The notes beneath the pieces are model-generated. The model had not been told where the DNA came from, ran no database searches, and saw only the letters and a list, made by a program, of their open reading frames with translations. Below, in pieces: positions 22,482 through 44,227 of a DNA stretch of 52,999 bases. Within the stretch, counting starts at the first letter, position 1. Every line of letters begins with the position of its first letter. Position numbers and translations under genes: made by a program. This stretch comes from a virus (lineage: Duplodnaviria > Caudoviricetes). The DNA lies in IMG/VR virus record IMGVR_UViG_3300025127_000052, positions 1 through 52,999 of that record. One strand, given 5' to 3'.

Positions 22482-22509
22482 ATAAACATACCTCGTATAC
22501 GTCTGCCTA

Positions 22510-22518
22510 ATAAATAGT
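22510..22518 (-). promoter_or_regulatory. candidate late-promoter motif ACTATTTAT
   Basis: The same 9-mer occurs in five intergenic regions of the structural module. Confidence 0.6.
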
Positions 22519-24231: not shown

Positions 24232-24251
24232 TGTTTATTTAGCTCCTCGTA

Positions 24252-24260
24252 ATAAATAGT
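24252..24260 (-). promoter_or_regulatory. candidate late-promoter motif ACTATTTAT
   Basis: About 21 nt upstream of the tube ATG, followed by GAGGAG. Confidence 0.6.
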
Positions 24261-24272
24261 TCTTAGAGCGGA

Positions 24273-27269
24273 TTAATCTTCGAAAGATGCTCCGCTGTTG
24301 GTGATTATGAAGTCGATTGCGAAGAACTCAACTGAACGAGTTGGCTTCACGAACAACTTAGCATAAATAATGTTGCGATCGATAAGATCTGGTGTTGTTG
24401 TGCTTTCGTCCAAAATTAGACGGAAGTCATCAATACCAAACTCAGCTTTCACATCACGTAGTAGTGGCTCAGCCTGTCCAAGGAAGCTGTCCCAAGTTGC
24501 CTGAGCGTTAGGTGCGAAAAGAAGCCTTGAGGCGATGAAGGAAATTTCACGCTTCAAGAAAATCATTAGGCGACGAACATTAATGCGGTCCAAAGCACTA
24601 GCAGTTTGCTGTAGTGTCTTCTGTCCAAAGATCACAATACCCTCTGCTGGGAACTTGGCGATTGGATTAATATTGTTTTCGTACAATGTGTCTCGCTGAT
24701 CAGAGGTGAGCTTGCGAGATACATCAAGCACAGGAACGCCGGCAGCGCCCTCACTTAATCCGCCACGAGTAAACCCAGCAGGAGCGAACCATGGTGCCTG
24801 TAGTCTATCTGTGTTAGACAAGACACCCAAAGCAGCTACCGATGGAGGTGCCCACAAGGTTTGATTATTGTTAGTATCCAAGATGCGGACCCAAGGGAAG
24901 TATGTAGCGCCGTAGCTATTGTTAATGCTTCGAGCAGCTAGAGCGTTAGCAGCAGCGGTTGGGGTGTTCCCTTCGTTGCGACTCTCAGTACTACCCTTTC
25001 CTTCAGCAGAAGGTGTGTAGACATTAGGAATGTCAATAAGGGCTAACGTATCAGCACGATCTTCGGCAGTTTCGAGTAGGTAGTTTGTTACTGCCTCTTC
25101 GGTAATCCCTGGGATTGTTATAGCATTCATTTCTACATCGTCAGGACTAGAAACAATATTAATAGCCTTACGAAGAGTGAAAAGCTCGTAAGAGTTCAAC
25201 TCGCTAATGTTATTAATAGCTCTCATCTTGCTATTTCTGAATGGATCTCTTTCTGTAATATCTAGACCATCTGTACCACCGAAAAGAACAGTAGTGAATC
25301 GATCTAAACCACCGTCCAAACGATCGGCGAAGGAAGAGGTGAGCCTAGCAACACTCTTACCACTTCGACGGTTGCCAGAAGCGTAGGAGTATACGCCAGA
25401 AGAACCAGATAGATCATCAAGAGAGAATACCCAAGAGATCTCATAAGGCTGAGAGCCTGTGTATTCAGTTGTTTGGCCCGCAATATCTACACTTGTATCA
25501 GAAGGGTTTGTATTGATGCTTGAATAATCAAAGGTTCTAGCCCTTACAAGATCAGCAATCGAAGGATTGTAGAATGTATCTGTTTGCGAGCGTCCGGTCC
25601 AGGCTCCCCAGAATGTGTTCTTAAGAGACCTTGGACTTCCCCACGATCCACTGGAACGAAGAGGCACTCCTGGGAACCTGATGGAACCAGAGAAGTAATT
25701 CCCGTTAAGAGCCTTAAGAGAAAGTAGTGACTGCCCGCCTGCGGCGTGACCAGCCAAACCGTACTTAGCACTACCTGAACCATTCAACATGGTAAGACTG
25801 TTGCCATCAGCGGCTAGAGAATAAGTTCCAAAGTTACTGAACCCAGACGAACCACTTACCAAACTTACGTCACGGTATTTGATAGGACCATAGACACCGA
25901 ATGGAAGCCAACGGGTTTCACCAGCGCCGGCAGCAACATCGTCATTCATGACAACACGAACGTAGTTAGAGCGGTTTTCGAATTCACCGTACTCTACGTT
26001 GCGAAGCTCGCTTGTGCTGTAAACCTGGAACTTGTCGCCGATTCTCTTAGCGATATAGTCCTCGGAAGCTGGGTTAAGGTTGAGGTTGTCGAACCTTTCA
26101 ACTATCTGAATTCGGTTATCGGTGTCGTCGATGGCACGAATCAATACCGAGAAGGAACCATAGCTCTGATAGTCACCTGTGGCAGCTTTAATGTTAGAGA
26201 TAGATATTTTTATTTCTCTCTGTGCCCATTCACCAGCAGTAATCGCCTCTAGACGGAATAGCTGCTGCTGGTTGCTAGCATAGTAAGAGCCTGTAGCATT
26301 TGAAAGGTCCTGAGAAATGAACCACCCTGTGGTGCCTGCAGTAGCGGCACCATTCCAGTTATTCTGTTGTTTAGAGTCATCACCATTGACTGCCATTGGT
26401 AGAATAGCAGCATGGAAGGAAGAACTAGACCCACCCTGAAGCAACCCAAGCTGATTAGCGTTCGTTTTGAATAGGCGGGACTGATACTCAAAGGTCTCAC
26501 CTGTCCAGTATCCACCACCCTGATAATAAGCCTGAGTAGCGTCCGAAGTAATCTCATTATTTGTGATAGTAGGATTGGTATTGAGGGCCTTACGGATAAA
26601 GTTGGGACTATCTGGATCAAGACTGATTTTTACTTCCTCAAAAGGAGCAGCACCAGTAGAACTAAACAAGAGTCGAATATCAGTAAGATCACTCAAAGCT
26701 CGTAGGGTACTACCGTTAGCACCGCCGCCAACAGCACTGGCAAGTGAAGAGGATAGCAAAACTCGACCACTCTCTAGGTAGAACTGAGCAGCTACGGCAC
26801 CAGTTACTGGAGCACCAACTCCAGTCACAAGCGATCCCGAAGGAAATATGACAAGAGCGAAGACACCACCATTAGCGTCAGTGTCACTAGCGTCATTAAC
26901 AGCCCAACCAGCCTTGCCAGTTGACAAAGTAGCAGAAGTGTCATTATCGCCCAAGAGGCGGAGGAAAGTACAAGGAGAATTATTTCTCAACCAAGCTTTC
27001 GCAGCATAGGGGGCGTAGGTTGGTGCAGTGTTGTTTCCATCACGCCAAGCGTCGCCGCCCTCATTACCGGCAACTGGGTCGCCGAAGGTTTGAACAAAGT
27101 CAGAAAAAGATTCGACTCTTACAGGTTTATTGGCAGGACCCTTGCGAGAGCGACCAATGACCACAGGTCCAATCTCTGTTGGGGTTGCTGGAAGTTGTGA
27201 TTGGTCGATCTCATCGACAAACACTCCTGGCGAAATGAACTTAAACTTTTTGGTGGAGTTGTCAGCCAT
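24273..27269 (-). CDS. tail sheath protein (T4 gp18-like) with large insertions
   Basis: SPGVFVDEIDQS, PWFAPAGFTRG, LYENNINPIA, FGQKTLQ and LDRINVRRL. Confidence 0.93.
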   Translation of the reverse strand: MADNSTKKFKFISPGVFVDEIDQSQLPATPTEIGPVVIGRSRKGPANKPVRVESFSDFVQTFGDPVAGNEGGDAWRDGNNTAPTYAPYAAKAWLRNNSPCTFLRLLGDNDTSATLSTGKAGWAVNDASDTDANGGVFALVIFPSGSLVTGVGAPVTGAVAAQFYLESGRVLLSSSLASAVGGGANGSTLRALSDLTDIRLLFSSTGAAPFEEVKISLDPDSPNFIRKALNTNPTITNNEITSDATQAYYQGGGYWTGETFEYQSRLFKTNANQLGLLQGGSSSSFHAAILPMAVNGDDSKQQNNWNGAATAGTTGWFISQDLSNATGSYYASNQQQLFRLEAITAGEWAQREIKISISNIKAATGDYQSYGSFSVLIRAIDDTDNRIQIVERFDNLNLNPASEDYIAKRIGDKFQVYSTSELRNVEYGEFENRSNYVRVVMNDDVAAGAGETRWLPFGVYGPIKYRDVSLVSGSSGFSNFGTYSLAADGNSLTMLNGSGSAKYGLAGHAAGGQSLLSLKALNGNYFSGSIRFPGVPLRSSGSWGSPRSLKNTFWGAWTGRSQTDTFYNPSIADLVRARTFDYSSINTNPSDTSVDIAGQTTEYTGSQPYEISWVFSLDDLSGSSGVYSYASGNRRSGKSVARLTSSFADRLDGGLDRFTTVLFGGTDGLDITERDPFRNSKMRAINNISELNSYELFTLRKAINIVSSPDDVEMNAITIPGITEEAVTNYLLETAEDRADTLALIDIPNVYTPSAEGKGSTESRNEGNTPTAAANALAARSINNSYGATYFPWVRILDTNNNQTLWAPPSVAALGVLSNTDRLQAPWFAPAGFTRGGLSEGAAGVPVLDVSRKLTSDQRDTLYENNINPIAKFPAEGIVIFGQKTLQQTASALDRINVRRLMIFLKREISFIASRLLFAPNAQATWDSFLGQAEPLLRDVKAEFGIDDFRLILDESTTTPDLIDRNIIYAKLFVKPTRSVEFFAIDFIITNSGASFED

Positions 27270-27336
27270 CGAAATGTATTCTCCTCGGTTTTATGCGTAT
27301 AGTATGGTATCTAACAATTTACACTAAATACCAATA

Positions 27337-27345
27337 ATAAATAGT
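27337..27345 (-). promoter_or_regulatory. candidate late-promoter motif ACTATTTAT
   Basis: Intergenic, upstream of the sheath gene. Confidence 0.6.
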
Positions 27346-28776: not shown

Positions 28777-30033
28777 TTAACCCACATAGATGCCCATTGG
28801 GATTTTCCCAACGACTTCTTGAAGATTATTCATCAACTGAGCATCACCCTCGGCAAGAGCGCCATACGCCATTTCATCAAGCACCGTCTTTAACTCATCT
28901 CTGAGAGCGTTTTGTTCTTCCTTTGCTTCGGAAACCAAAGCAGGACCGTTAAGGGTCACCTCGTTCCCAGGAATAGGAATAGAAGCAAGCTTAGATCTTA
29001 CTTGTCCCAGTGTTTCTTTTGCCAATGAAAGGGCAAAGCGTCGGATCCACTGTTTACCAATACTATTAATGTGTTTGTAGGGTACATTAGGGAATGGCAA
29101 CGTGTTCATGTTGTTAACACCGTCAGCCCCATACTTACGATCAGCTTCCTCAAAGAAAGCATCTTCTGAGACTCTGAAATCTACCCAAAACTTGTCGGGA
29201 TTGCTTCCGTTAGGAGTAGGAAAGATTCTTAATTTATTATTATTGATTCGGAAAGAGTAGTGTGAAGCTCTTACATTCAAGTCTTCCTCGAAAGCATATG
29301 CCTGAAGGACATTCTGCCAAGCCGGCACAAGCTGGAACTGGCTATCATCGGCATACATGCCATAAGTGGACAAGTTGCCGACAGCACCAATCGCATATCC
29401 ACCAAAGAAATTCCACATACTCTGAGGAGTCTTATAATAAACTCTCTGAATAGTGATAGCGCTTTTGCCAACGCTATTACTAAAAGGAGCGCCGGCGACC
29501 AATGAAGCGCTGAAAATAATATCTTGAAGGTCATAATCCTGAACATCTTGGACAGCATTAAAAGAGGCTGAATAGATAGTCTGCGATGCTCCGATACCAG
29601 CGTGTAAACTTACTCCTCTTCCGACATGAGTAGCATATCCTAACTGAAAGCGAGGAAATTTAAGATTAGGTTTAGTATTGAGTCCGCCAGAGCCAGAATA
29701 CTCAGTAAACTCACCGTCCTGATCGAAAGAGCCTGTAGTGTTGCCGAGCATGTCGGATAAAACATTTTTAGCTTGGTGAGTGTTTAGAAGATAGGAGTAT
29801 TCTAGGCACGCCTCTTCATAAGCATTATATACAATAGCAGGCGTGATTTCTAAATCTAATACTCTCCCGCCAAGCTTGTTGAAGGTATAAGCCACCTGAT
29901 CCACAGCACCGCTGATGAAGGCGCTTGTAGTGTAAATCCCATAAGATAAGGAATCTGTAACGTCCGAAGCAGTGCCAGTAGCAGGCAAGACTACGGCACT
30001 AACTGTACTTAATGGTTGAAGGTTTGTGGGCAT
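28777..30033 (-). CDS. neck / adaptor protein (T4 gp13-like)
   Basis: KLGG..LDLEIT, WIRRFALSLAKETLGQVRSK and IPG..VTLNG. Confidence 0.8.
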   Translation of the reverse strand: MPTNLQPLSTVSAVVLPATGTASDVTDSLSYGIYTTSAFISGAVDQVAYTFNKLGGRVLDLEITPAIVYNAYEEACLEYSYLLNTHQAKNVLSDMLGNTTGSFDQDGEFTEYSGSGGLNTKPNLKFPRFQLGYATHVGRGVSLHAGIGASQTIYSASFNAVQDVQDYDLQDIIFSASLVAGAPFSNSVGKSAITIQRVYYKTPQSMWNFFGGYAIGAVGNLSTYGMYADDSQFQLVPAWQNVLQAYAFEEDLNVRASHYSFRINNNKLRIFPTPNGSNPDKFWVDFRVSEDAFFEEADRKYGADGVNNMNTLPFPNVPYKHINSIGKQWIRRFALSLAKETLGQVRSKLASIPIPGNEVTLNGPALVSEAKEEQNALRDELKTVLDEMAYGALAEGDAQLMNNLQEVVGKIPMGIYVG

Positions 30034-30053
30034 GTAAAATCCTCGCTTGTTGT

Positions 30054-30062
30054 ATAAATAGT
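30054..30062 (-). promoter_or_regulatory. candidate late-promoter motif ACTATTTAT
   Basis: About 21 nt upstream of the neck gene ATG. Confidence 0.6.
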
Positions 30063-30089: not shown

Positions 30090-30122
30090 TAAGAAAACCC
30101 CGCCACTAGGACGGGGTTCTCT
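30090..30122 (-). terminator. terminator after capsid gene copy 2
   Basis: Stem AACCCCG/CGGGGTT followed on the minus strand by TTCTTA. Confidence 0.75.
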
Positions 30123-30150
30123 TAGGTTTATTCAACTCTTAGAGTTGTTT

Positions 30151-31902
30151 TTAGCCAGCTACGTCAGATACCATATCTGCGCAGACTACTAGTCCGTACA
30201 TGTCAGGACGTACCATCTTCTTGGCGTAGCGAGTCATGACTCCCTTACGAGGTACGAAGTCCTCGGTACCAAAAATGGTAGGTGTGACTTGTAGCGGGAC
30301 ATAAGGAGCATATACATAGCCGCTTTCTAGGAAGCTGCTGCCCTTACGACCTACTAGTAGTAGGTTACGTGGGAAGTAAGGATCGACATGAATGTCCATC
30401 TTACGACTAATAGAACCAACGTTATGAACGCCCCAAGAGCCGTCCCTATCATCGACTGCTACCGAAGCACGGAAGCCGCTGGTGAATTCAAGGATGTTGG
30501 CTACTTCTGGAGAGCAGACCAAAAAGTTAGCGCCACCACGTAGTGTCTTACGGTGAATACGAGCACTTACTTCATTGACAGTCTCAAGAAGAGTTTCATA
30601 CCACTCAGAGACAGTGCCGGTAAAATCTGGGTAGATTGTACCATCAACAGGAGCACCTGTCTCACGGTTTAAGAACTTACCTGGGCTACGAGACCAATAC
30701 AATGTACCAGCGGTAGCACCCTTGACGAGATCCTCAAGAATTTCCTGATCGATCTCAAGGGCAACTTGTTCGGATAAGATGCTTGTCAATTCAACTTCAG
30801 CGTCGAGGTTGTGATAAGCATTCAAGTCTTGAGCCAACTCAGGACTCCACTTAGCTTTGAGCTTCTTAGTCAAAGCTGTGACAGCCACGGAATCAACCTT
30901 GATGTCAATTTCTGGAATTTCTGTGTTGTTTTCAAGACCCCAGCCTTGTTCTACGTTACTACCGACGACAGAACCAATAGCCCCACCGTTAGCGAATTCA
31001 TCAGTTATAGGAAAGAATACTTTACTAATTCCCGCTAGAGCAGCGCTAAACTCATCTATGGTACCGCTACCAGCAGTTTGGACGAAAACCATTCGCAAAC
31101 GCTCTTCAACAGAACCAGAGAAGTCGGTCAAGCGACGGACTTGGTGAGCTACACCGCCTGAAGCATAGGTGTAAACACCTGGCTGGGCTGTGCCGCTTTG
31201 GGCTGTCATTGCCACAAAGTCATCAGTGTTAAGACCAGTTGGGATATTATGTCGGGCAACAGCATAGAAACTTGTACCAGAAACAAATACAGGATCAGCA
31301 CGCAAGACCTCAAACAAGTAACCACCTGGTCTTGTAGCGGCGTCACCATAGGTTCCGGAAACTTCAAGTGTAAGACCGTCAGTAGTAGAACTCGTTGGAC
31401 TAGCGTAACCGTTGTTCAAGGTGTAAGCTGAAAGCTGACCGTCATTGCCAGCCAAGCTGACGCCACCTGTCAACTGAGCGCCGACAACGCCACCACCATA
31501 TACTGAAGTATCTGGAGACTGTGCGAGGCGAGCAAGGCTACCACCTGCGGTACTCATCCCACTATCACCCGAAAAGGTGAAATCTAGGAAGAAGATTAGA
31601 CCCGAAGGGAGGCTCATGGGTTGAACGGATACAAGATCCTGAGCCAATAGCTGACCGAATACACGGCGAACGATTGGGAAAGCAACTGCGGAAAAACCTT
31701 CTACGTCGCCACCAGACATTGTGCTGGTTTCTTTGAGGAGTTGGGCTGCCTGATTCTCTAGAAGACGAGCCATATTGGAACGGCCGCTATCATCAAGACC
31801 TTCTAGAAGACCTGTTTTTTGCCACTTCTCAAGAAGGGCTTCACCCTCGTTAGCTAGCGAGCGAGATTTAATTCCTTCTGTTAATGTGTTTAATACAGAC
31901 AT
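30151..31902 (-). CDS. major capsid protein, copy 2 (T4 gp23-like)
   Basis: FPIVRRVF, VSVQPMSLPSGLIFFLDF, KLKAKWSPELAQDLNAYH, YAPYVPL and PRKGVMTRYA. Confidence 0.95.
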   Translation of the reverse strand: MSVLNTLTEGIKSRSLANEGEALLEKWQKTGLLEGLDDSGRSNMARLLENQAAQLLKETSTMSGGDVEGFSAVAFPIVRRVFGQLLAQDLVSVQPMSLPSGLIFFLDFTFSGDSGMSTAGGSLARLAQSPDTSVYGGGVVGAQLTGGVSLAGNDGQLSAYTLNNGYASPTSSTTDGLTLEVSGTYGDAATRPGGYLFEVLRADPVFVSGTSFYAVARHNIPTGLNTDDFVAMTAQSGTAQPGVYTYASGGVAHQVRRLTDFSGSVEERLRMVFVQTAGSGTIDEFSAALAGISKVFFPITDEFANGGAIGSVVGSNVEQGWGLENNTEIPEIDIKVDSVAVTALTKKLKAKWSPELAQDLNAYHNLDAEVELTSILSEQVALEIDQEILEDLVKGATAGTLYWSRSPGKFLNRETGAPVDGTIYPDFTGTVSEWYETLLETVNEVSARIHRKTLRGGANFLVCSPEVANILEFTSGFRASVAVDDRDGSWGVHNVGSISRKMDIHVDPYFPRNLLLVGRKGSSFLESGYVYAPYVPLQVTPTIFGTEDFVPRKGVMTRYAKKMVRPDMYGLVVCADMVSDVAG

Positions 31903-31932
31903 TTTTTATTCTCCTTTGAATTATTTGTCTTT
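31894..31932. repeat. 39-bp direct repeat (RBS plus the scaffold gene's last codons), identical to 33725..33763
   Basis: tacagacattttttattctcctttgaattatttgtcttt occurs at both capsid gene starts. Confidence 0.95.
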
Positions 31933-31942
31933 AATTTATGAT

Positions 31943-31976
31943 AAAAGAAAGCCCCGCCACGAAGGACGGGGCTTTC
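31943..31976 (-). terminator. terminator between the two capsid genes
   Basis: Stem AAAGCCCCG/CGGGGCTTT followed by CTTTT on the minus strand. Confidence 0.8.
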
Positions 31977-32005
31977 CGTAGTTATCCTAAGCTACTGGGA
32001 TTGAA

Positions 32006-33733
32006 TTAACCAGCGACATCGGATACCATATCTGCGCAGACTACTAGTCCGTACATGTCAGGACGTACCATCTTCTTGGCGTAGCGAGTCATGACTCCCT
32101 TACGAGGTACGAAGTCCTCGGTACCAAAAATGGTAGGTGTGACTTGTAGTGGGACATAAGGAGCGTAGACATATCCACTTTCGAGGAAGCTAGCACCCTT
32201 GCGACCTACTAGTAGCAAGTTACGTGGGAAGTAAGGATCGACGTGAATGTCCATCTTACGACTAATGGAACCTACATTCATGACGCCCCAAGAGCCATCC
32301 TTGTCGTCTACAGCGACGGAAGCACGGAAACCGGAGGTGAATTCAAGAATGTTAGCTACTTCTGGGGAGCAAACTAGGAAGTTAGCACCACCACGTAGTG
32401 TCTTACGGTGAATACGAGCACTTACTTCGTTGACAGTTTCAAGAAGTGTTTCATACCATTCGGAGACAGTACCTGTGAAGTCAGGGTAGTTTACACCAGC
32501 AACAGGAGCACCTGTTTCACGGTTGAGGAACTTACCTGGGCTACGTGACCAGTAAAGCTTACCAGCAGTAGCACCCTTAACAAGGTCTTCAAGGATCTCT
32601 TGATCGATTTCAAGAGCAACCTGCTCGGACAAGATGCTTGTCAACTCAACTTCAGCGTCGAGGTTGTGATAAGCATTCAAATCTTGAGCTAGTTCTGGTG
32701 ACCACTTAGCTTTGAGCTTCTTGGTCAACGCTGTAACAGCCACGGAATCGACCTTGATGTCAATTTCTGGGATAGCTGCGTTGTTCTCAAGACCCCAAGG
32801 GGTAGCACCTACGACAGAGCCGATAGAACTGCCCTGATTGAAGACGTCCACGATTGGGAATGTGAGACCAGTTGTAACTTCTACAGAAGCACTCAACTGA
32901 TCAGGGGTTGCTGTGGAAGCAAAGACCATGTTAAGTGTTGTTTCGCTAGAACCAGAGAAGTCGGTCAAGCGACGTACTTGGAAACCATCTTTGACCAAAC
33001 CACCAGCAGCAGTACCACTGAGGACAGTCATAGCAACTAGATCGTCCATGTTTTGGTTTGTTTGTTTCTCCAGGGTACCAACAAGATATGTTGTTGTACC
33101 AGAGATGAAAGATGGATCAGCACGCAAAATGGTGAACAAAGATCCGCCTGGGCGGGTTTGAGTATCACCATATGTACCAGAAGCCTGAATTGTAACTACG
33201 CCACCAGCAACTGTTACTGATGCTGTTGGACTAGCGTAACCGTTGTTCAAGGTGTAAGCTGAAAGCTGACCATTGTTGTCAGCCAAATCAATACCACCTG
33301 TGATTTGAGCACCGACTTTGCCACCACCGTAAAGTGAGGTACCAAGACGCTGAGCAAGACGGTCACCGTTGGCGTTGGCGCCGTTGTTACCGTTTTCAGA
33401 ACCAAAGGTGAAATCTAGGAAGAAGATTAGACCGCTTGGTAGGGACATTGGTTGAACGGATACAAGATCCTGAGCCAATAGTTGACCGAATACACGGCGA
33501 ACGATTGGGAAAGCAACTGCGGAGAAGCCTTCGACATCTCCACCAGACATTGTGCTGGTTTCTTTTAGAAGCTGAGCAGCTTGGTTTTCTAGAAGACGAG
33601 CCATGTTAGAACGACCGTTGTCGTCAAGACCCTCTAGAAGACCTGTACGCTCCCACTTCTCTAGTAGAGCTTCACCTTCATTGGCAAGAGAGCGTGCTCT
33701 AATACCTTCGGTGAGTTGGTTAAGTACAGACAT
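32006..33733 (-). CDS. major capsid protein, copy 1 (T4 gp23-like)
   Basis: Same gp23 motifs as copy 2; directly follows the scaffold gene. Confidence 0.95.
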   Translation of the reverse strand: MSVLNQLTEGIRARSLANEGEALLEKWERTGLLEGLDDNGRSNMARLLENQAAQLLKETSTMSGGDVEGFSAVAFPIVRRVFGQLLAQDLVSVQPMSLPSGLIFFLDFTFGSENGNNGANANGDRLAQRLGTSLYGGGKVGAQITGGIDLADNNGQLSAYTLNNGYASPTASVTVAGGVVTIQASGTYGDTQTRPGGSLFTILRADPSFISGTTTYLVGTLEKQTNQNMDDLVAMTVLSGTAAGGLVKDGFQVRRLTDFSGSSETTLNMVFASTATPDQLSASVEVTTGLTFPIVDVFNQGSSIGSVVGATPWGLENNAAIPEIDIKVDSVAVTALTKKLKAKWSPELAQDLNAYHNLDAEVELTSILSEQVALEIDQEILEDLVKGATAGKLYWSRSPGKFLNRETGAPVAGVNYPDFTGTVSEWYETLLETVNEVSARIHRKTLRGGANFLVCSPEVANILEFTSGFRASVAVDDKDGSWGVMNVGSISRKMDIHVDPYFPRNLLLVGRKGASFLESGYVYAPYVPLQVTPTIFGTEDFVPRKGVMTRYAKKMVRPDMYGLVVCADMVSDVAG

Positions 33734-33763
33734 TTTTTATTCTCCTTTGAATTATTTGTCTTT
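33725..33763. repeat. 39-bp direct repeat, identical to 31894..31932
   Basis: Direct comparison. Confidence 0.95.
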
Positions 33764-34756
33764 GTTGTTAATTGCTGCGAGAGTTGCCCAACGACTATAT
33801 GTTGGACTAGGTTCAGTAGTGCGTTCCTCTTTACGATTCCCACTAAGAATGACTGATGATCTTTTTGATACGACTTCAGACAACGATTGTGGAGCTTCTT
33901 TTGTGATGCCCGCCATTGTCTTTTGAAGGGTTTCATAAACCATCTTCGCTTCTTCTACCGAACGTGCTCCAGAAACTAACTCAGCAATTTTAGCTTTTTG
34001 CTGCTCATTCAAGGAGGAATCTCCAAGAACACGGTTCGCATATAATAACCTTGCGTTTTGCAAGTTTACTTCTTGTAATTTATTTTTCACTCGCTCAAGG
34101 AGAGCCTTGAGACTTTCATTTTCTTTTCTAAGTGCCTCTTCTTGAGGTGCGTTATTCTTAAGGTCAGCACGCTCAAGATCTTTAGCGTCCTCTTCATCCA
34201 TGCCGTCAGTCTCTACAGCCTCAACTGCTTCGTCTTGTTCGACCTGATCCTGTGTAAGGCGCTCCTCAGCACGATCTAATTCTACCTGAGGTACATCTAC
34301 GACGAGTAATTCTTTAAACATTTCGACAAGTTCACTCTCGTCGAGATTAATTTCGTCATCAGCATCGGAACGATTAAAAGCACCGTCTTCGAGGGGTAGT
34401 CCAATCTCATCAGCAATTTCTTCACGATCAAGTTCAGCGGTTGGTTCTTCTTCTTCGTCCGCATCAGCAGCAGCAAGAATATCGTCAAGGTCAACGACAA
34501 CGATCTCTTCTTCGTTATCACCCAAATGTGCCATTGGTACTTGCTCCATGGCAGTGCTGTCTACTTCCGCTTCTTCGGCAGCACCAGGACCAGCATCCAT
34601 GCCAAGATCCAACTCGTCGTCTTGTTCAAGAAGCTTGCTTACAGCATTCTTAACTTCAGTATTGTACTTTTCTACGATGGCGGCTTCGGCACTCTTTACA
34701 GCGGCCTCTCGAAGAGCCTTTGCGTCAACAATTGCTTGTTCTAACATATTAGACAT
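33752..34756 (-). CDS. prohead core scaffold protein (T4 gp22-like)
   Basis: Highly acidic with coiled coil; EVNLQNARLLYAN; immediately upstream of the capsid gene. Confidence 0.8.
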   Translation of the reverse strand: MSNMLEQAIVDAKALREAAVKSAEAAIVEKYNTEVKNAVSKLLEQDDELDLGMDAGPGAAEEAEVDSTAMEQVPMAHLGDNEEEIVVVDLDDILAAADADEEEEPTAELDREEIADEIGLPLEDGAFNRSDADDEINLDESELVEMFKELLVVDVPQVELDRAEERLTQDQVEQDEAVEAVETDGMDEEDAKDLERADLKNNAPQEEALRKENESLKALLERVKNKLQEVNLQNARLLYANRVLGDSSLNEQQKAKIAELVSGARSVEEAKMVYETLQKTMAGITKEAPQSLSEVVSKRSSVILSGNRKEERTTEPSPTYSRWATLAAINNKDK

Positions 34757-34791
34757 AAATAATCCCCTTTAGTTGATGATATTACATCAAA

Positions 34792-34800
34792 ATAAATAGT
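34792..34800 (-). promoter_or_regulatory. candidate late-promoter motif ACTATTTAT
   Basis: Intergenic, upstream of the scaffold-capsid operon. Confidence 0.6.
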
Positions 34801-34861: not shown

Positions 34862-37315
34862 TTAGAATAGTCGCCCAGTGTTGTTAATATTAAAATTAAA
34901 GTTTCCAACTGGAAGCCACTTGGTCCCTCCCCACACTAAAGTACACCCTGCTCGGCTGAAGAGTGGTCCCGAACCTGGGATTGATGCTGAAAGACTAATC
35001 GACCCAACAGGCGAGGTTGGGGGCGCATCAATATTAGCGCCGGCGATATTAATTGCTGTAGAAGTAGCGCCGCCTGTTGATCCTGATATAATCATGCCTC
35101 TAATTTTCTTTTCTTGCCCTACAAATGTTCCATCAGCAATAGTCATGCTGAGACTATTATTTACAGCAAGTGAAGATGACGCATCTATGATTGTCAATCC
35201 TGTAGCGGCTGATATCGCACCATTGGCAGTAAGAGTCTCTATGGAACGGTTACCAAAGGCACCAGAAAGCGCAACGCTACCACTGATTGATAACGTCTCT
35301 TGAGGTGCGGCTGTCCCAATACCTACTCGTCCTGAGCCTGTGACAAACAAAGTGGGCTGTGAGTTAGGCTGATCAGCGTGGTCAACTCTAAGCAGGACTG
35401 GTCCGCCGACATCACTGCCGCCAGTGGAAGACGATATGTGAAGAACCGCCTTGGCGGTGTCCATGTGTGCTGAGTTGTTCGTTCCCATGTTAACCGAGTC
35501 GCCCGAAGCCCGAACAGTCATCGCTTGGTGTCCGTAGGTGTTATTATCAAAATGGAATCTATTATCATTGTGATGGTAATAGAAGTGAGCACGTCTTGCG
35601 TCATCGGCGTCACCCCAAACTAGAAACCCAGACTTGTCGGTGGGAGTCATAAACTGGACACCAACATGATTGTTGTTTTCTAACATTAGCAAAGTATTAT
35701 TAACAGGATTTTGCCCTTGGTCTGCGCCACTCTCGCCCAGAATGTGAAGTCTATTAGTTTCGTCACTGTCTTCTCGTGGAGAATCAGTACCAATACCAAC
35801 TAAGCCGCTGCCTGTAATATACAAAATGGGCTTTGATCCGGCCTGATCGTGCTGATCAACTCGGAATAGAGGGGTTGTTGTTGGTACACCACCTGAGACA
35901 TGTAACATGGCAGTTGGCGCATCTGTGCCAACACCAACTCGCTGGTTCTCTAGTGCCGTCAGGATACTGCCGCTATTACTTGTTACATTCATAACAGTTG
36001 AATTATCAGATGAGGAGACGTGTAATTGGGCAGTAGTAGAGGTTGCGTTACCGATAATACATTTTTGATTATCTGACCCGCCAGTATTTCTACTATCAGC
36101 TATGAACACTGTGGACGTTTGCTTTCCGCCACGAATATAAGTGTGCTCGGCGCTACTGAAATAGAAATGACTAGTGCCGTTGCTTCCCCTAAATTTGACT
36201 TCATTGAAACCAGCACCATTATCAGGGTGAACATCCAAAACAGCGCTAGGAGTTGCTGTCCCGATACCAATTCGTCCTGAACCGGTGACTACTAATATAG
36301 GATTATCAGCATGATCTGGGTGATCAACTCTAAAAAGATCTCCCGTGTCAGAAGATGACACGTGGAGATTGGCTAAGACAGAATCTGTCCCAATACCGAC
36401 TCGTCCTGAGCCTGTTACAAACAAAGTTGGCTTATCACCGGGTTGATCACCGTGGTCAACTCTAAGCAAGACTGGTCCGCCGACATCAGTGCCGCCAGTG
36501 GAAGACGATATGTGAAGGGATGCCTTGTTGGTTGTCATATGACCACTAGATGAGCTTCCTATGTTTATACTATCTCCGTTTGAGAGCATGGTCATTATCC
36601 GTTTGCCGCCAAAACTGTCGCCATTGAACTCGTACCTACTATTAGCAGAAGACCAATAAAAAACGGCTTTTCTAGCGTTGCCTGGGATTCCCCAAGTAAT
36701 CTGACCTGATCGTCCGTTTGGGACCATAAACTGGAGGCCAGCGTGATTGTCGTTTTCAAGCACTAACTGAGTATTTACTACAGGGGCTTGGTTCTGTTCG
36801 GCACCATTGTTGCCCACAATATGAAGACGGTTTGTATCGTCACCTTCTCCTGGATTGGTAGGCGATGGGTTATCAGTACCTATACCGATTATGCCGCTGC
36901 TGGATACAAAGAGGATTGGTTCTGGTCCGGACTGATTGGCATGGTCTATTCGGAAAAGAGCACCGTTTGCTGAAGAAGATATCTCAAGGGCGGCAGTCTT
37001 CATAGAAACAGAAGCTGTCACCTGTGGAGACGTTAATGATGTCCCGTCAAAAGTAAGACTAGCCTCGCCATTAATAGTGTTAGAGTTGACAGAGGTTAAT
37101 ACTCTGTCGTTGCCAGCGTTGGTATAACTGGAGACTGCTCCGCCTCCTCCTCCACCGCCGCCAGTAATTGAGGCACCATTAAGAGTCAGGGAACCAGTAA
37201 TATCAACAGAGCCAGTAAACTCGTGCGTATCTGTTAATAGTGTTCCTGTTTCTGTACTGCCAGGAACATTGTTTGGTGAGGGTGTGAAGCCTCCTCCGCC
37301 GCTACCGAATCCCAT
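34862..37315 (-). CDS. repeat-rich fibre-like virion protein
   Basis: Repeated LHxSSS...RVDH...TGSG(R/L)(V/I)GIGT units, an internal duplication and a Gly-rich N-terminus. Confidence 0.7.
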   Translation of the reverse strand: MGFGSGGGGFTPSPNNVPGSTETGTLLTDTHEFTGSVDITGSLTLNGASITGGGGGGGGAVSSYTNAGNDRVLTSVNSNTINGEASLTFDGTSLTSPQVTASVSMKTAALEISSSANGALFRIDHANQSGPEPILFVSSSGIIGIGTDNPSPTNPGEGDDTNRLHIVGNNGAEQNQAPVVNTQLVLENDNHAGLQFMVPNGRSGQITWGIPGNARKAVFYWSSANSRYEFNGDSFGGKRIMTMLSNGDSINIGSSSSGHMTTNKASLHISSSTGGTDVGGPVLLRVDHGDQPGDKPTLFVTGSGRVGIGTDSVLANLHVSSSDTGDLFRVDHPDHADNPILVVTGSGRIGIGTATPSAVLDVHPDNGAGFNEVKFRGSNGTSHFYFSSAEHTYIRGGKQTSTVFIADSRNTGGSDNQKCIIGNATSTTAQLHVSSSDNSTVMNVTSNSGSILTALENQRVGVGTDAPTAMLHVSGGVPTTTPLFRVDQHDQAGSKPILYITGSGLVGIGTDSPREDSDETNRLHILGESGADQGQNPVNNTLLMLENNNHVGVQFMTPTDKSGFLVWGDADDARRAHFYYHHNDNRFHFDNNTYGHQAMTVRASGDSVNMGTNNSAHMDTAKAVLHISSSTGGSDVGGPVLLRVDHADQPNSQPTLFVTGSGRVGIGTAAPQETLSISGSVALSGAFGNRSIETLTANGAISAATGLTIIDASSSLAVNNSLSMTIADGTFVGQEKKIRGMIISGSTGGATSTAINIAGANIDAPPTSPVGSISLSASIPGSGPLFSRAGCTLVWGGTKWLPVGNFNFNINNTGRLF

Positions 37316-38444: not shown

Positions 38445-39041
38445 CTATTCGTCGCCTAAAATATCGTTTAGGGCACGATTAATACGATCTGCTTTAGTTA
38501 GGTGGGTCTTTACTTGGCTTTCGGCTACAAGGAAAGCTCCTGTAGTGCTGGGTTCTGATACGAGGTCAAAACACAAAAGCTGAAAGTCATCCTCCACCAT
38601 AGTGACACCACCTTGTTGGCGGGTGGAGCCAAGACCACGGCTTGAGATACCCAATTGAACGCCACCCTCTACAAGTTGGCGAGCAATCTGTCCGGCTGGC
38701 GTGTTGAGAATCTTCATCTTACCCATAACGTCGTCACCCTTCCACCATACTTCAGTGATAACATGACTAGCATTCTTAAGTTCCACTACAGAACTATCTG
38801 GGTGGTCTAGTTCGCCGATGGCACGACCTTCCCGAACGAGTTTTTCGTAGTTCTTCATCTCTCGCTCAAGTATTGGACGTGGGTAGATACGTCCATTGCC
38901 GTTCTTTTTACCGGCTGCTTGAATCTTGCCAGCAACAATTAGATGTGTACCGTTACGATTACCTTCCTTCTCCTCTTCTGTGAGAAGATCGTCACTGTAA
39001 TCTAGATTCATAAACTCTTGTAAGACATATTTCTTATTCAT
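38445..39041 (-). CDS. prohead protease (T4 gp21-like)
   Basis: NGNGRIYP, GELDHP, SH, TPAG, LGISSRGLGS and DLVSEPS. Confidence 0.93.
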   Translation of the reverse strand: MNKKYVLQEFMNLDYSDDLLTEEEKEGNRNGTHLIVAGKIQAAGKKNGNGRIYPRPILEREMKNYEKLVREGRAIGELDHPDSSVVELKNASHVITEVWWKGDDVMGKMKILNTPAGQIARQLVEGGVQLGISSRGLGSTRQQGGVTMVEDDFQLLCFDLVSEPSTTGAFLVAESQVKTHLTKADRINRALNDILGDE

Positions 39042-39972: not shown

Positions 39973-40786
39973 CTTCTTGATATTCTCTTACAAGTTTTTG
40001 AAGCTTCAAGATTTTTAGAATCTCTCGCTCCGTTAAACGGGCAACATTATATTCGGACAGTTGGGCAAGAACTTTTTTAGTACTATCCACCATTTCGGGA
40101 TCTTCTTGAACTTCCTGCAACTGGAGTGAGTTCTCTACCATCTCATATATTCTCTTTAACTCCGAGCCGGCGTAAGTCTTAAAGTCAGCTTCATTTTCGT
40201 TGAACGAAACAATAAACTTAGTTAGTAATTTTTTCTGTTCAGGGAGCAATTCTGAATATGTCTCATTGAATCGATCTGTGAATGATTTAACCACCAAATT
40301 ATCAACTGGCTGCATCTGTTCTTGTTCTTCAACGTCACTGGTTAAGGTGTCAACAATCTTCTGTTCCATGATAACTCTTGACTTAACAGGTAGCTTGTTG
40401 CCAAATATCTGTGCCAAAGTAGCATAAGATTTGTAATCTGGGACGAAGTTGTTATAGACATCCTTGCCTAGCTCAGTGTTGATCTTTTTAATAACACTGG
40501 ACTGTTCTTTGAATATATCCTGCTGGTTGAGGGTCTCGTACTCTTTCTTGGCCCTAAAGATCATCTTTTCGGCGGTGTAACGGTCAAACTTGTCTTCTTC
40601 AGCGAGAGCGTTAAAGCAGCCCAATTCACTAAAGAGTACCATACCACTCCGAAAATGTTCTTTCAAAATCTTTTTGATTTTCTGAGAACGGGTCGCATTC
40701 TGCTCTATAACCGCTTTAGTCAATTCTTTTACCAAAGCTTCATAGAGGAAAGCGGTGTTTCTTTTCTTATTATGCTTGACCTTCAT
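39956..40786 (-). CDS. hypothetical head-module protein following portal
   Basis: MKVKHNKKRNTAFLYEALVKE; helical. Confidence 0.7.
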   Translation of the reverse strand: MKVKHNKKRNTAFLYEALVKELTKAVIEQNATRSQKIKKILKEHFRSGMVLFSELGCFNALAEEDKFDRYTAEKMIFRAKKEYETLNQQDIFKEQSSVIKKINTELGKDVYNNFVPDYKSYATLAQIFGNKLPVKSRVIMEQKIVDTLTSDVEEQEQMQPVDNLVVKSFTDRFNETYSELLPEQKKLLTKFIVSFNENEADFKTYAGSELKRIYEMVENSLQLQEVQEDPEMVDSTKKVLAQLSEYNVARLTEREILKILKLQKLVREYQEDANND

Positions 40787-42653
40787 CTTTTGTTTCCAAT
40801 TGTTTTATTAGTTGCTTGATACTAAACTGAGTTTCAAATAACATCTCTTCTTCTGATTTTTGTGCTTCGCTATGAATTCCGTTAGAAAGGGAACTCATCT
40901 CTCCATACCCTTTAAATAGTGCACGACGAGACGAACCTGCCCCTTCTCTATTATAAGAACCGTTCATGCTGCGGCGGCGGGCACCTTGTTTCCACTTAGG
41001 ACTTTTAACGTACATGTATCCGTTATCATTTCTTTGCCCTGGTTCAATATCGGGTTCAGCAAGAAGTGGTCCTTCATCGGCGGGTTCCTCGGCAGCGGGT
41101 TCATCGCCCCCTCCAAGGTCGTCGCCACCGAGGTCATCACCAAGCTCGCCGCCGAGATCGCCACCTTCCCCGCCTTCAGGTACAGTCCCGGCCTCTTCAA
41201 TAGCAGCACCCTGAAGGGCGTCTGTAAATTGCTCGACCTGAATTCTGTCGATTTCTTCTTCGGAGATTTTGAAGATGTTTCGGTATACCCACTGCTTAGA
41301 AAAATATCCATCAGTAGCGCTACCAGCGACATCAAACTTGGTTCGCATGTGTTCTAGCTCTTGAAGCTCGGCGATCTTAGATGGATTATTGAGAGACAGC
41401 TTAAATGACAAAAGATCATTGTTTCTGTACCCCAAGGTAAAGAGATGAATAATACAAATCTTTTCTAGTTCGGCAATGACAACTCTCTGTAGTCTTTGAA
41501 TGGTGCGAGCAAATCGAATGTCCTTTTGAGATAATGTTGTCTTGTCTTCCTGAGCATCTGATTGTGCTAGGTAAGCCTTTGGTACCTTAAGGGCTGAGAA
41601 AAGTTTATCACGAAGATAGTTCACATCATCAATATCACCAGTGAACTGACCACCTGCCAGGGTTTCGATTCTTGTGTTACTAGCAGCACCACGAATAGGA
41701 ATGTAAAAATCCTCATCTACACTCATGGCATTGTATCGCAAATCAACTCGTCCACTATCTTCATCTACAATTTGATTGCGCTTCATTTGTGTTTTGACTT
41801 GTTCGATGTATTGTTCCACATCTTCTGCAGCCATGTTACCAACATCAATATAGAATACTCGCCGCTCTGGTGAGCGAACAATACGATAAGCCATCATCGC
41901 ATCTTCTAAGAGTGTAAGCTGTCGCCAAATACGGCGAGAGGGCTCTAGGACCGAAGTGCCATAGGGAACATATTTATCATTTCCTAAAACACGGAAGTGA
42001 GAGACCTGCCAGTTTTCAAAGGTAACACCTTTGTTGCCGTCGGCATTCTGCCAAAAAAACTGAACATAGTTTGGGTTTGTAGGATCTGTACCCTCAATTC
42101 TTTCCATTTCTCGCACAGGCAACGGTATGACATTAGTAATGCCAAGCTTCTCATCAATATCAAGATACAGATAGTAGTCACCATACTTACAAGCACTACG
42201 AGCCCAGCCAAATAGGTTTGCCTCAGAGTTAAGAACATTGTACAGTAATGTATCTAGAATATCTTTAATTTCCCTGTTGTGACAATCAATATTAATCAAA
42301 GGATTAAATGCCGTAGAGGTGGTAATCTCATCAGCATAAATATCTAGAGCGGAAGCAATCTCAGGCATGTATTCCATTTGTTCAAAGTCTGTGTATCGCA
42401 TCTGCTTGTTGCGATTATACAAAACTTTATTTGTTAGGTCCCCAAATGGATTGAAATACTCTTTCTTTTTAAACTCCCGACCAGTGCTTGAGGTAAAGGT
42501 ATATTTTGTGATATCACGGCGGCTGCCACGTACCACAGATGGTCGATCATAGTCCACAATAGGGCCACTAAATAAACGAGTCAGTCTCTTAAACAGAGCG
42601 GACTGATTATTTCTGGGGTTGTTTGCGTTGTTGTTATTTTGATTGTCAGCCAT
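40770..42653 (-). CDS. portal protein (T4 gp20-like)
   Basis: PEIASALDIYADE, LEDAMMAYRIVRSPERRVFYIDVGN, EDFYIP and ALKVPKAYL. Confidence 0.95.
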   Translation of the reverse strand: MADNQNNNNANNPRNNQSALFKRLTRLFSGPIVDYDRPSVVRGSRRDITKYTFTSSTGREFKKKEYFNPFGDLTNKVLYNRNKQMRYTDFEQMEYMPEIASALDIYADEITTSTAFNPLINIDCHNREIKDILDTLLYNVLNSEANLFGWARSACKYGDYYLYLDIDEKLGITNVIPLPVREMERIEGTDPTNPNYVQFFWQNADGNKGVTFENWQVSHFRVLGNDKYVPYGTSVLEPSRRIWRQLTLLEDAMMAYRIVRSPERRVFYIDVGNMAAEDVEQYIEQVKTQMKRNQIVDEDSGRVDLRYNAMSVDEDFYIPIRGAASNTRIETLAGGQFTGDIDDVNYLRDKLFSALKVPKAYLAQSDAQEDKTTLSQKDIRFARTIQRLQRVVIAELEKICIIHLFTLGYRNNDLLSFKLSLNNPSKIAELQELEHMRTKFDVAGSATDGYFSKQWVYRNIFKISEEEIDRIQVEQFTDALQGAAIEEAGTVPEGGEGGDLGGELGDDLGGDDLGGGDEPAAEEPADEGPLLAEPDIEPGQRNDNGYMYVKSPKWKQGARRRSMNGSYNREGAGSSRRALFKGYGEMSSLSNGIHSEAQKSEEEMLFETQFSIKQLIKQLETKDEGQA

Positions 42654-42655
42654 GA

Positions 42656-44227
42656 TTATCCTTTAATGATCCAATTTAGGTCGTGAGTTTTTCCATCGTT
42701 GCCTTTAAAGGTTGTCTTTTGTCCCTTAAAGCCATGTTGTCCATATATCTTAGTATTAAGTTTGGTAGACGATACGGATATACTCGTTAATAGTGCCTTT
42801 TTGTAATCTGCCTCCCGCTGGTTTGCCGTTAAGGCTGTTCCTCTTACCCAGCAACCAATACAAGCCGCAATCACCAGGTCGTCGTTGTAACTCCTCATGG
42901 CTTGCGGTCTTCCGTTGTGCCATACAAATGTTTTGATTTCATTCGCAAGTCGCACGGAATTAATAGTAATTAGTTTATTTCTGACGAATTCTTCAAACTT
43001 CGCAATAACAAGTGGTCTAGTTTTCATAGACATCGTAAAACCAGCCACCCCTCCGAGAGCATGAGCAGACACTTCATCAACATATTCATGTGTTGATTTT
43101 ATACTATAATACAAATTTTTATAGTCTAAATCTTGTAGTCGGGTTAGGACTCCGATACCCAATGAGTTGTTTTCTATAATCAACAAAGCATTATTGTACT
43201 CAGAAGCAATGGAATAGAGCAAAGGAGCAAACATATCAGGAGTTATTTTTCCCTGATATTCCGCTACCTGGGTCATACTCTGGACATCAAACACATGAGC
43301 AACACTAAAATCTGAACCGTCTCCACGAGCAACGTCAGCCACTAAAATATATTCACTATGCGGATTAGGTTCTTGCCAGATCCAATAATTACGATCAAAC
43401 CCTGTCTGATGTTTAGGATCGCTTATGTTTTCAAGTATAAGTTTGAGGTCATCCCCGTGAACCACTGTATCGCCTGAAGCGTTGAAGTTACATTCAAGTT
43501 CCTGTGCGATCTCACGACGTGACATGTTTCTAGTTTCTTTTTCAAACCATGCCTGGTCTCGCTCTGGGTGTACTTGCCAAGGTAGACGAATAGTGTGGAA
43601 ATCATTCTTACCCTCTTGTGCCTCTGTATAAGTTTTATGAAACCAATTACCAACACCATTAGGAGTAGACAAAGCGATACAACGACCACCAGTAGATAGC
43701 GTAGGGTAAAGACCAGCCCATAGCTCGTCAATGCCCTCAACAAAAGCCGCTTCGTCGATTACCAACAAAGACAAAGCTTCTGAACGTCCTGCGTCGCCAG
43801 ATGTCGAGGAAGCTTTGACCATCGACCCGTTTGAAAGTTCGAAAGAGTTCCTGTTGTCAATAGCGATATCAGATATTTTCAGCCAAGGCGGAAGATTTTT
43901 ATGTATTGCCTTGATCTTTTTTACAAGATTAGCCGCAGTTCCAAGCTTAGTAGCAACCACCAGGACATTCTTGTCTTTATGGAATAACATAAGCCACGCC
44001 ACATAAGCTGCGACCGTAGTTGAAATTCCTAGCTGGCGGGCCTTTAGAATTACGCTAAATCGGTTTTCTTTAAAATCTGTTAGAGCTTCCTCCTGGAAGT
44101 CATAAAGATCAAAAGGTATAGAGCCCCTCATGGGGTGAGAAATTTTTGCGTACTTTTTACAGAAGAAAGCAGGATCCTTACCGCAGCGGACGATCTCCGC
44201 CATCATTTCCTTCTTGTTCAGAGACAT
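42656..44227 (-). CDS. terminase large subunit (T4 gp17-like)
   Basis: LYDFQ, KARQLGIST, IDEAAF, STPNG, ADVARGDGSDFS and DDLVIA. Confidence 0.95.
   Translation of the reverse strand: MSLNKKEMMAEIVRCGKDPAFFCKKYAKISHPMRGSIPFDLYDFQEEALTDFKENRFSVILKARQLGISTTVAAYVAWLMLFHKDKNVLVVATKLGTAANLVKKIKAIHKNLPPWLKISDIAIDNRNSFELSNGSMVKASSTSGDAGRSEALSLLVIDEAAFVEGIDELWAGLYPTLSTGGRCIALSTPNGVGNWFHKTYTEAQEGKNDFHTIRLPWQVHPERDQAWFEKETRNMSRREIAQELECNFNASGDTVVHGDDLKLILENISDPKHQTGFDRNYWIWQEPNPHSEYILVADVARGDGSDFSVAHVFDVQSMTQVAEYQGKITPDMFAPLLYSIASEYNNALLIIENNSLGIGVLTRLQDLDYKNLYYSIKSTHEYVDEVSAHALGGVAGFTMSMKTRPLVIAKFEEFVRNKLITINSVRLANEIKTFVWHNGRPQAMRSYNDDLVIAACIGCWVRGTALTANQREADYKKALLTSISVSSTKLNTKIYGQHGFKGQKTTFKGNDGKTHDLNWIIKG

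Follow-up and report, generated by a model that had tools for sequence, protein, structure and literature searches.

A tandem second gp23-type capsid gene in an uncultured marine T4-like phage, candidate for a less abundant shell subunit

The IMG/VR virus record IMGVR_UViG_3300025127_000052, a linear metagenome-derived record of 52,999 bp rated 29% complete (analysed here over its whole length and called the window), belongs to an uncultured marine T4-like phage. It carries two capsid genes of the gp23 type in tandem on the minus strand, c1 (32006..33733, 575 aa) and c2 (30151..31902, 583 aa). Sequence comparison with relatives supports c2 as a real, selected second capsid gene. We give an even chance to the reading that c2 encodes a conserved, less abundant second shell subunit, built into the same capsid as c1 and lending a different surface to part of it. 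Within this reading, the lower expression of c2, its co-assembly with c1 and any role of its surface are what we infer from the sequence.

Two capsid genes of the gp23 type

Both genes are intact open reading frames (ORFs) and both products match the Pfam family Gp23 (PF07068) with 238 bits (cut-off 24.4). This confirms the two full gp23-like genes proposed in an earlier reading of the window (the initial annotation). T4 gp23 chains are matched by both copies at E-values of 6e-29 to 6e-28 (the match of c2 being also given as 1.5e-28), and the match to T4 gp24 comes far behind, at E 0.013 for c2 and likewise ~0.01 for c1. The place in the head module is also that of a gp23-type gene, with terminase, portal and protease upstream and a neck gene and the sheath downstream. 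Residues 55-61 of both copies read LLKE/TST, with L55, L56 and E58 invariant in 55 relatives; we take this site to be the cleavage motif of the head protease, the cleavage itself being predicted.

As proteins c1 and c2 are 80% identical (470/586 positions, BLASTP). Identity reaches 102/108 for the first residues and 248/257 for the last ones, falls to 58% in the middle (aa 109-318) and is 96% for the shell part. Thus the near-identical ends and diverged middle described initially hold for the proteins but not for the DNA, where the ends are 78-91% identical with a synonymous divergence (dS) of 0.3-1.8. Conserved ends around a variable middle are, moreover, not special to this pair: they are common to 55/55 aligned relatives.

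Along the gene, dS is highest in the propeptide (1.8, aa 1-58) and in the middle (1.3), lower over the last 257 codons (0.63) and lowest in the N-arm (0.30, aa 59-108). The ratio of non-synonymous to synonymous divergence (dN/dS) stays at 0.05 for the shell part, against 0.29 for the middle. With such high dS, the ends are alike as proteins because of purifying selection and not of a recent duplication. Judged by their sequences the copies are old, and the suggestion that the second one is “nascent” does not survive a dS of 0.63 in the shell part and of 1.3-1.8 in the middle and propeptide. High dS was also considered as a proof that the tandem state is old, and rejected, since a captured allele would import its divergence. 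Because dS alone is insufficient, the age of the tandem state rests on the comparison of strains of a related lineage and on the matched shell cores, both described below.

The variable middle

In the alignment of all 55 relatives residues ~109-320 are variable and the ends conserved. The corresponding stretch covers 32780..33409 in c1 (aa 109-318, the putative insertion domain with its linkers) and 30925..31578 in c2 (aa 109-326). Searched as a profile, this alignment hits T4 gp23 with E-values of 6e-34 to 4e-33, and gp24 with only 3e-4. The variable stretch sits between the parts that align to the N-terminal region of gp23 and to its spine helix. In the predicted structure of c1, residues 171-310 form a confident beta-rich domain within a model that is weak overall (pLDDT 66, pTM 0.37). 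The best hits of a fold search with this model were T4 gp23 chains (E 6e-7, with a TM of only 0.2-0.34). Matches of the c1 middle domain to Ig-like folds (E 0.08-0.3) were discarded as meaningless.

The I domain of T4 makes the surface protrusions, has E-loop-like linkers and rests on a neighbouring subunit of the same capsomer, as described in PMC9546572; the insertion domain of Sinorhizobium phage PhiM9 is likewise given as the most variable part of its capsid protein (PMC4621102). On the strength of the variability in the family, the alignment to gp23, the c1 model and the T4 parallel, the variable middle is probably the surface insertion (I) domain, and the earlier idea of an outer insertion domain gains support from the same sources.

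The pair among relatives

Capsid loci of relatives were gathered by four scans (three of IMG/VR, one of metagenome contigs), each of which took the best 80 candidate stretches or fewer; for two of the IMG/VR scans these were the best 80 of at least 595 stretches. They yielded 163 distinct loci of the capsid clade, with some overlap between collections possible. Eight of these carry a tandem pair at the same locus, which answers the copy-number survey of relatives that the initial annotation had called for; a single full gene, flanked by 400 bases or more on either side, is present in 121, and 34 are too short for a decision. The eight represent three lineages (the L091 lineage, comprising L004, L090, L091, L092, L142 and L146; L149; and L163), or four with the window. 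L091, L142 and L146 have both genes in full, L004, L092, L149 and L163 in part; these pairs come from different data sets and collections. All eight have the scaffold-like gene upstream, and the neck gene downstream where the contig reaches it. The reading frame of the first copy in L090 (6597-8303) breaks near codon 40, and a stretch of N lies near codon 533, at DNA identical between the copies; faulty assembly of the repeat is the probable cause, rather than a pseudogene.

The c2 surface type (73-74% aa identity) was found in second copies only (L090, L091, L092, L142 and L146), the other loci fetched reaching 58% at most. The closest relative of c1 among the fetched loci is the single-copy gene of L003 (93% aa identity). 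Cultured phages are distant: the capsid protein of Flavobacterium phage immuto is 47% identical, followed by those of Microcystis phage Mel-JY01 and Rhodothermus phage RM378. In GenBank, the 40 records listed have one matching place each, and 2560 places are spread over 2557 matching records.

Selection and matched shell cores

Purifying selection acts on both genes. The c2 genes of the window and of L091 (dS ~1.5) have a dN/dS of 0.12 over the surface domain, against 0.04 over the shell part. To contrast the copies, three strains of the L091 lineage were used, ~5% apart in DNA over the region. Their c2 genes show synonymous:non-synonymous changes of 76:4, 63:4 and 49:2 (dN/dS 0.012-0.018; 0.013-0.03 in the surface domain). 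For c1 the corresponding counts are 28:20, 10:9 and 30:22, i.e. a dN/dS of 0.23-0.29, which rises to 0.4-0.8 in the surface domain. The change ratios of the two copies differ with Fisher p-values of 5e-7 to 9e-5. With a dN/dS of ~0.015, c2 of this lineage is subject to very strong purifying selection and is no decaying spare; it is the more constrained copy, and it is the surface of c1 that changes.

Along L091 1800-9100, most bins of the scaffold-like gene and of c1 match L142 and L146 at 97-100% identity, against 92-97% for c2 and 85-95% for the genes downstream. These values point to a recent sweep or an exchange limited to the c1 region in this lineage.

We then compared the shell cores (N-arm plus residues 319-520) within each genome, using as a yardstick the between-genome pairs whose synonymous difference lies within 0.07. 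A non-synonymous difference as small as that within the genome was found in 8/110 such pairs for the window, 0/350 for L091, 0/245 for L149 and 17/263 for L163; the yardstick pairs are not mutually independent, and all four results point in the same direction. By this measure, the shell cores of one genome are kept more alike as proteins than drift would leave them. Such matched cores fit what co-assembly predicts (one lattice, one scaffold, one protease), and gene conversion alone would cut both kinds of difference.

Expression signals

Each copy is preceded by the same 39 bp, at 33763..33725 for c1 and 31932..31894 for c2, with a mismatch bounding the repeat at both ends. The repeat takes in the end of the upstream gene (its final three codons and stop), an AAGGAG ribosome-binding site (RBS), the ATG and the two codons that follow it. 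The 39-bp perfect repeat of the initial annotation, with its RBS and the last codons of the scaffold gene before each copy, is therefore exact.

A hairpin followed by a T-run lies between c1 and c2 (31946..31977). It has 13 pairs, of which 8 are G-C, followed by TTTCTTTTAT; its energy is -25.4 kcal/mol (z -5.7) and 0/200 shuffles are as stable. The hairpin with T-run after c2 (30090..30124) reaches -23.7 kcal/mol, again with 0/200 shuffles as stable. With a G+C-rich stem, a T-run and a location past the stop, both have the predicted features of intrinsic terminators, in agreement with the terminators initially noted after each copy. The one after c2 is ancestral, being common to single-copy relatives (aligned with L003, L005 and L090). 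L091 has a different hairpin, of -31 kcal/mol, in the same position between c1 and c2, and L149 has one between its copies whose T-run is not clear.

The motif CTATTTAT(A/T) occurs on the coding strand upstream of the genes starting at 34756, 30033, 27269, 24231 and 22481 (at 34791-34799, 30053-30061, 27336-27344, 24251-24259 and 22509-22517, respectively). The first site (CTATTTATT) is 35 nt upstream of the gene in the scaffold position; the second (CTATTTATA), found also in the alignment of relatives, precedes the gene that follows c2. The search found the motif neither before c1 nor before c2. With one mismatch allowed, 22 occurrences were found against 15 expected, i.e. modestly above chance. 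The motif may work as a late promoter. It reads as what we take to be the reverse complement of the T4 late promoter TATAAATA, so that its consensus or its orientation would differ from that of T4.

Most likely c1 shares the transcript that would start at the motif 34799..34791, before the scaffold-like gene. For c2, the claim that it lies behind a terminator without a motif of its own is borne out. Because a strong terminator precedes it and the late-promoter-like motif is absent, low abundance of the c2 product, as the initial annotation had it, is a fair inference, and in the window c2 would be less expressed than c1; this part of the claim stands as a prediction from sequence signals.

History of the copies and of their surface types

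A tree of whole proteins was built with 32 rows, after removal of partial, broken and duplicate ones and of three far outgroups. It places c1 with the single-copy L003 (100/99) and c2 with both copies of L091 (99/99). Trees of segments (DNA, 22 rows) tell different stories. In the middle segment, c2 of the window and c2 of L091 are sisters (100/99), set off from all other rows. The 3' segment groups by genome, c1 with c2 in L091 (100/100) and c1 and c2 of the window with L003 and L005 (90/97). The two segment trees conflict for other loci as well, e.g. L005, L094 and L101. Second copies do not form one clade, three changes being needed on a tree of 37 rows: the second copy of L149 has the surface type of c1 of the window and of L003 (95/90), and that of L163 the type of the single-copy L098 and L165 (99/96). 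As read from these trees, the surface domains have, over evolutionary time, recombined with different ends and changed between the first and the second position.

Of the capsid diversification locus, or reserve allele, of the initial annotation, this long-term reassortment is the part that is borne out. A device for it finds no support: between 29000 and 35000 there is only one inverted repeat, of 26 nt, 73% complementary and 1408 nt apart, and c2 of the L091 lineage has a dN/dS of 0.012-0.018. The locus thus lacks the marks of an invertible or templated variation cassette, a statement that concerns the locus, as no window-wide search for a recombinase or a reverse transcriptase was made.

Perfect c1/c2 tracts of 128, 47, 41 and 41 nt bracket the variable part. 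They include a region at c1 nt ~1490-1712 (window 32244-32022) and c2 30411-30167, and synonymous sites elsewhere are well diverged. Similar tracts exist at the same place between phages (104 and 80 nt for c2 against L005), besides one of 74 nt between c1 and c2 of L091. This region may recombine unusually often, or may contain a nucleic-acid element under constraint within the capsid gene. We considered the identical tracts as a proof of gene conversion and rejected it, equally long ones being found between different phages.

Short-word assemblies of reads were inspected as Logan contigs from four runs of four studies, two of which (X4 and X5) gave the same pieces and are perhaps one data set. 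In run X2, a contig of 727 bases joins the 5' part of c1 (33225) to the middle of c2 (31393) over the 47-nt identical tract. This joint is either a one-gene recombinant allele in the sample or a path of the assembly graph.

A two-subunit capsid

The reading we favour is as follows. The phage would encode two functional capsid proteins of the T4 gp23 type that fit one shell. c1 would be the bulk subunit, transcribed together with the upstream scaffold-like gene, and c2, whose RBS has the same sequence as that of c1, would be made in smaller amounts by read-through of the terminator. As propeptide, N-arm, P domain and A domain are nearly the same in both, c2 could use the same scaffold, protease and lattice contacts. 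Its outward-facing insertion domain would be a separate, conserved type. The minority subunits would thus expose a different surface, spread over the shell or at special places, which might serve as a docking site for another head protein. The 817-aa fibre-like protein encoded upstream (see Genomic context) may be a head fibre, which would make it a candidate partner for such a surface.

Several observations weigh against this reading. The pair is present in only 9/130 informative contigs, the window included, so that a second subunit is dispensable in the clade, and the nearest relative, L003, has one capsid gene. In L163 (3519-3670) the second copy is preceded by a terminator and then by its own ACTATTTATA, like an independent late gene cassette; low expression is therefore no general rule for pairs. 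Codon usage does not separate the copies either: the codon adaptation index (CAI) is 0.81 vs 0.79, and at the 110 sites that differ synonymously the commoner codon is found 54 times in c1 and 53 times in c2. The overall weakness of the c1 model and the dependence among the yardstick pairs, given above, count on the same side. Finally, no Logan piece among those listed spans 31942-32005, the contigs ending at the repeats, and the exact c1-c2 junction had 0 matches in other IMG/VR contigs, a search from which the window's own record was possibly absent.

A wider proposal, which we regard as rather unlikely, is that capsids of two near-identical subunits have evolved again and again among marine far-T4 phages, three times or more in this clade alone. 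They would combine an abundant subunit with a fast-evolving surface and a rare, conserved read-through subunit, placed at the vertices or at docking sites of head fibres such as the 817-aa protein. The pairs would then be living intermediates toward gp24.

Alternative explanations

c2 could instead be a vertex (penton) protein, i.e. an independently arisen counterpart of gp24 at the eleven five-fold corners, with c1 forming the hexamers. We hold this to be unlikely. It does have the position in its favour: c2 is a capsid paralogue directly downstream of the major capsid gene, where T4 has gene 24, and the window contains no other one. Expression limited by a terminator would suit a protein needed in 55 copies; c2 is far more conserved than c1 in the L091 lineage and, among the loci fetched, its surface type occurs in second copies only. 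Precedents also exist. T4 gp24 is held to derive from a duplication of gp23 (PMC9958956), the I domains of T4 gp23 and gp24 are reported to behave differently on expansion (PMC9546572), and Mycobacterium phage Jabs is described with adjacent hexon and penton capsid genes (preprint 10.64898/2026.07.24.740622).

The changes specific to c2 are nevertheless not where a vertex role would put them. Fifteen residues are common to both c2 orthologues and absent in 20 other rows (the control with c1 gives 1), and all lie at 123-288, in the surface domain; 0/15 fall in the P domain, the A domain or the N-arm. The mutations of T4 gp23 that bypass gp24 are located in the A domain, according to PMC9958956. 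Shell positions that distinguish c1 from c2 number 9 in the window and 6 in L091; only 319 and 485 recur, with other residues. c2 keeps the full gp23-like propeptide and is closer in sequence to gp23 than to gp24 (E 1.5e-28 vs 0.013). Furthermore, the second copy of L149 has the surface type of the sole capsid protein of L003, the second copy of L163 that of the single-copy L098 and L165, and the 121 single-copy relatives build their corners from one protein, as is thought for PhiM9 (PMC4621102). The vertex role put forward for c2 by the initial annotation therefore finds no support in these comparisons.

A second possibility, which seems to us decidedly improbable, is that c2 is a captured allele, acquired by unequal recombination between co-infecting relatives of unlike capsid surface type, redundant, short-lived and lost again by recombination between the conserved ends. 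The reshuffling of surface types against the ends, with middle and 3' trees that disagree, is what such captures would leave, as are second copies that need three changes on the tree and the predominance of single-gene relatives; the X2 joint (33225-31393) resembles the product of such a deletion. That joint, however, may have been created by the assembly graph. In the L091 lineage the pair has been kept by three strains ~5% apart, with c2 at a dN/dS of ~0.015, and the cores within a genome are more alike than those of phage pairs at equal synonymous distance, which is unexpected for a fresh capture. The 3' parts also cluster by genome (100/100 for L091, 90/97 for the window copies with L003 and L005).

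We give very little weight to a switching or reserve system, in which only one of the two forms would make up the capsid at any time, with recombination or gene conversion altering the surface of c1. The four perfect tracts around the variable part, the X2 joint and the fast change of the c1 surface in the L091 lineage (dN/dS 0.4-0.8) would agree with it. No invertible or templated machinery was seen at the locus, however, beyond the one weak inverted repeat; tracts equally long between phages (104 and 80 nt, c2 against L005) are no mark of exchange within a genome; the surface domains of c1 and c2 remain in separate clades; and a silent reserve would not give a dN/dS of 0.015.

An assembly error is unlikely, and a false tandem strung together from two co-occurring strains, which the linear 29% complete contig, the short-word contigs that end at the repeats, the junction found in no second contig searched and the broken first copy of L090 might suggest, is barely credible given the junction sequence, the pairs in relatives, the read depth and the flanks. 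After c1 come a diverged terminator, then CATAAATT, then the 39-bp repeat, a succession that differs from the ancestral intergenic region; the latter (terminator plus CTATTTATA) comes after c2 and is common to L003, L005 and L090. This c1-c2 junction is unique and not derivable from single-copy loci, so mis-joining of two one-gene strains at shared words cannot make it. Stronger support is comparative, complete and partial pairs being found in other contigs from different data sets. Both flanks are closest to L003 (83% for the upstream gene; 82, 79 and 77% for three downstream genes). Depth is alike for pieces unique to c1, to c2 and to the flanks in three studies (32-47 in X1, 2.5-5.7 in X4; in X2, 4-7 for most pieces, with 10.7 for a 3' piece of c1 and 15.9 for its conserved 5' piece). 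Even depth is weak support, because the depth of a contig is not a copy number.

Comparison with known systems

The closest parallel is T4 gp23/gp24, two HK97-fold paralogues with an insertion domain, adjacent after the scaffold gene. The T4 pair is described as ~20% identical, gp24 losing only 10 N-terminal residues (PMC9958956). The window pair is instead 80% identical, 96% in the shell part, and both copies have a gp23-like propeptide. PhiM9, with a distant relative of gp23, is reported to lack gp24, and its one gp23 is thought to make hexamers and pentamers (PMC4621102); the window adds a second full-length gp23. In Jabs, a single HK97-type shell is formed by the products of two adjacent genes, MCPh (ORF72) and MCPp (ORF73), according to preprint 10.64898/2026.07.24.740622. 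The Jabs penton protein has 257 residues vs 594, and the roles were solved by cryo-EM according to the preprint, whereas the copies of the window are of near-equal size and have putative roles.

Two more distant systems resemble the proposed arrangement. The chlorovirus PBCV-1 has low-copy paralogues of its major capsid protein at special places of the lattice, as sites for fibres and minor proteins (PMC9617893); it is a eukaryotic giant virus with another capsid fold, and a model for a rare c2 surface by analogy only. Two-component encapsulins of Family 2B combine two HK97-fold proteins of one operon in mixed shells of variable make-up, as described in PMC12407261; they are cellular nanocompartments and show no swap of insertion domains.

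A full-text literature search, supplements excepted, turned up no paper on a T4-like phage with two full-length gp23 genes. How viruses come to use a dedicated protein at particular places of the capsid has been seen only in finished forms such as T4 gp23/gp24, ~20% identical. The two genes of the window still have a 96%-identical shell core, and their differences are almost confined to the surface domain. The window adds a pair with a clear one-gene sister, a c2 surface type common to two lineages and a contrast of selection between copies. Several independent pairs together with many one-gene relatives open to test the early specialisation of subunits, the rules of mixed HK97 lattices and selection on capsid surfaces. 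As g23 is a standard marker for counting T4-like phages, a genome with two diverged copies counts twice.

Genomic context

The genes of the late module are T4-like by their Pfam and PHROG family matches and all lie on the minus strand. Family matches identify the large terminase (44227..42656) and the portal (42653..40770), followed by a T4-type head protease (39041..38445, phrog_207). Between the protease block and the scaffold-like gene lies the gene of the 817-aa fibre-like protein (37315..34862), which matches tail-fibre PHROGs at E 4e-11 and consists of two visibly similar halves.

The gene directly upstream of c1 (33752..34756) encodes an acidic protein of 334 aa, labelled scaffold-like from its position, that of T4 gene 22; it has no Pfam or PHROG match. 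This gene is kept upstream of the capsid gene in L091, L146, L163, L142 and L149.

On the other side, the locus is bordered by a neck or head-tail adaptor-like gene (28777..30033, 418 aa; phrog_211, E 1.5e-8), which also comes after the capsid gene or genes in L003, L091, L142 and L146. Its product was considered as a hidden gp24 and rejected, as it has no capsid match and matches the neck-adaptor PHROG instead. Further downstream, the tail sheath gene (24273..27269) encodes 998 aa, of which the last ~290 residues are the only part matched by sheath families.

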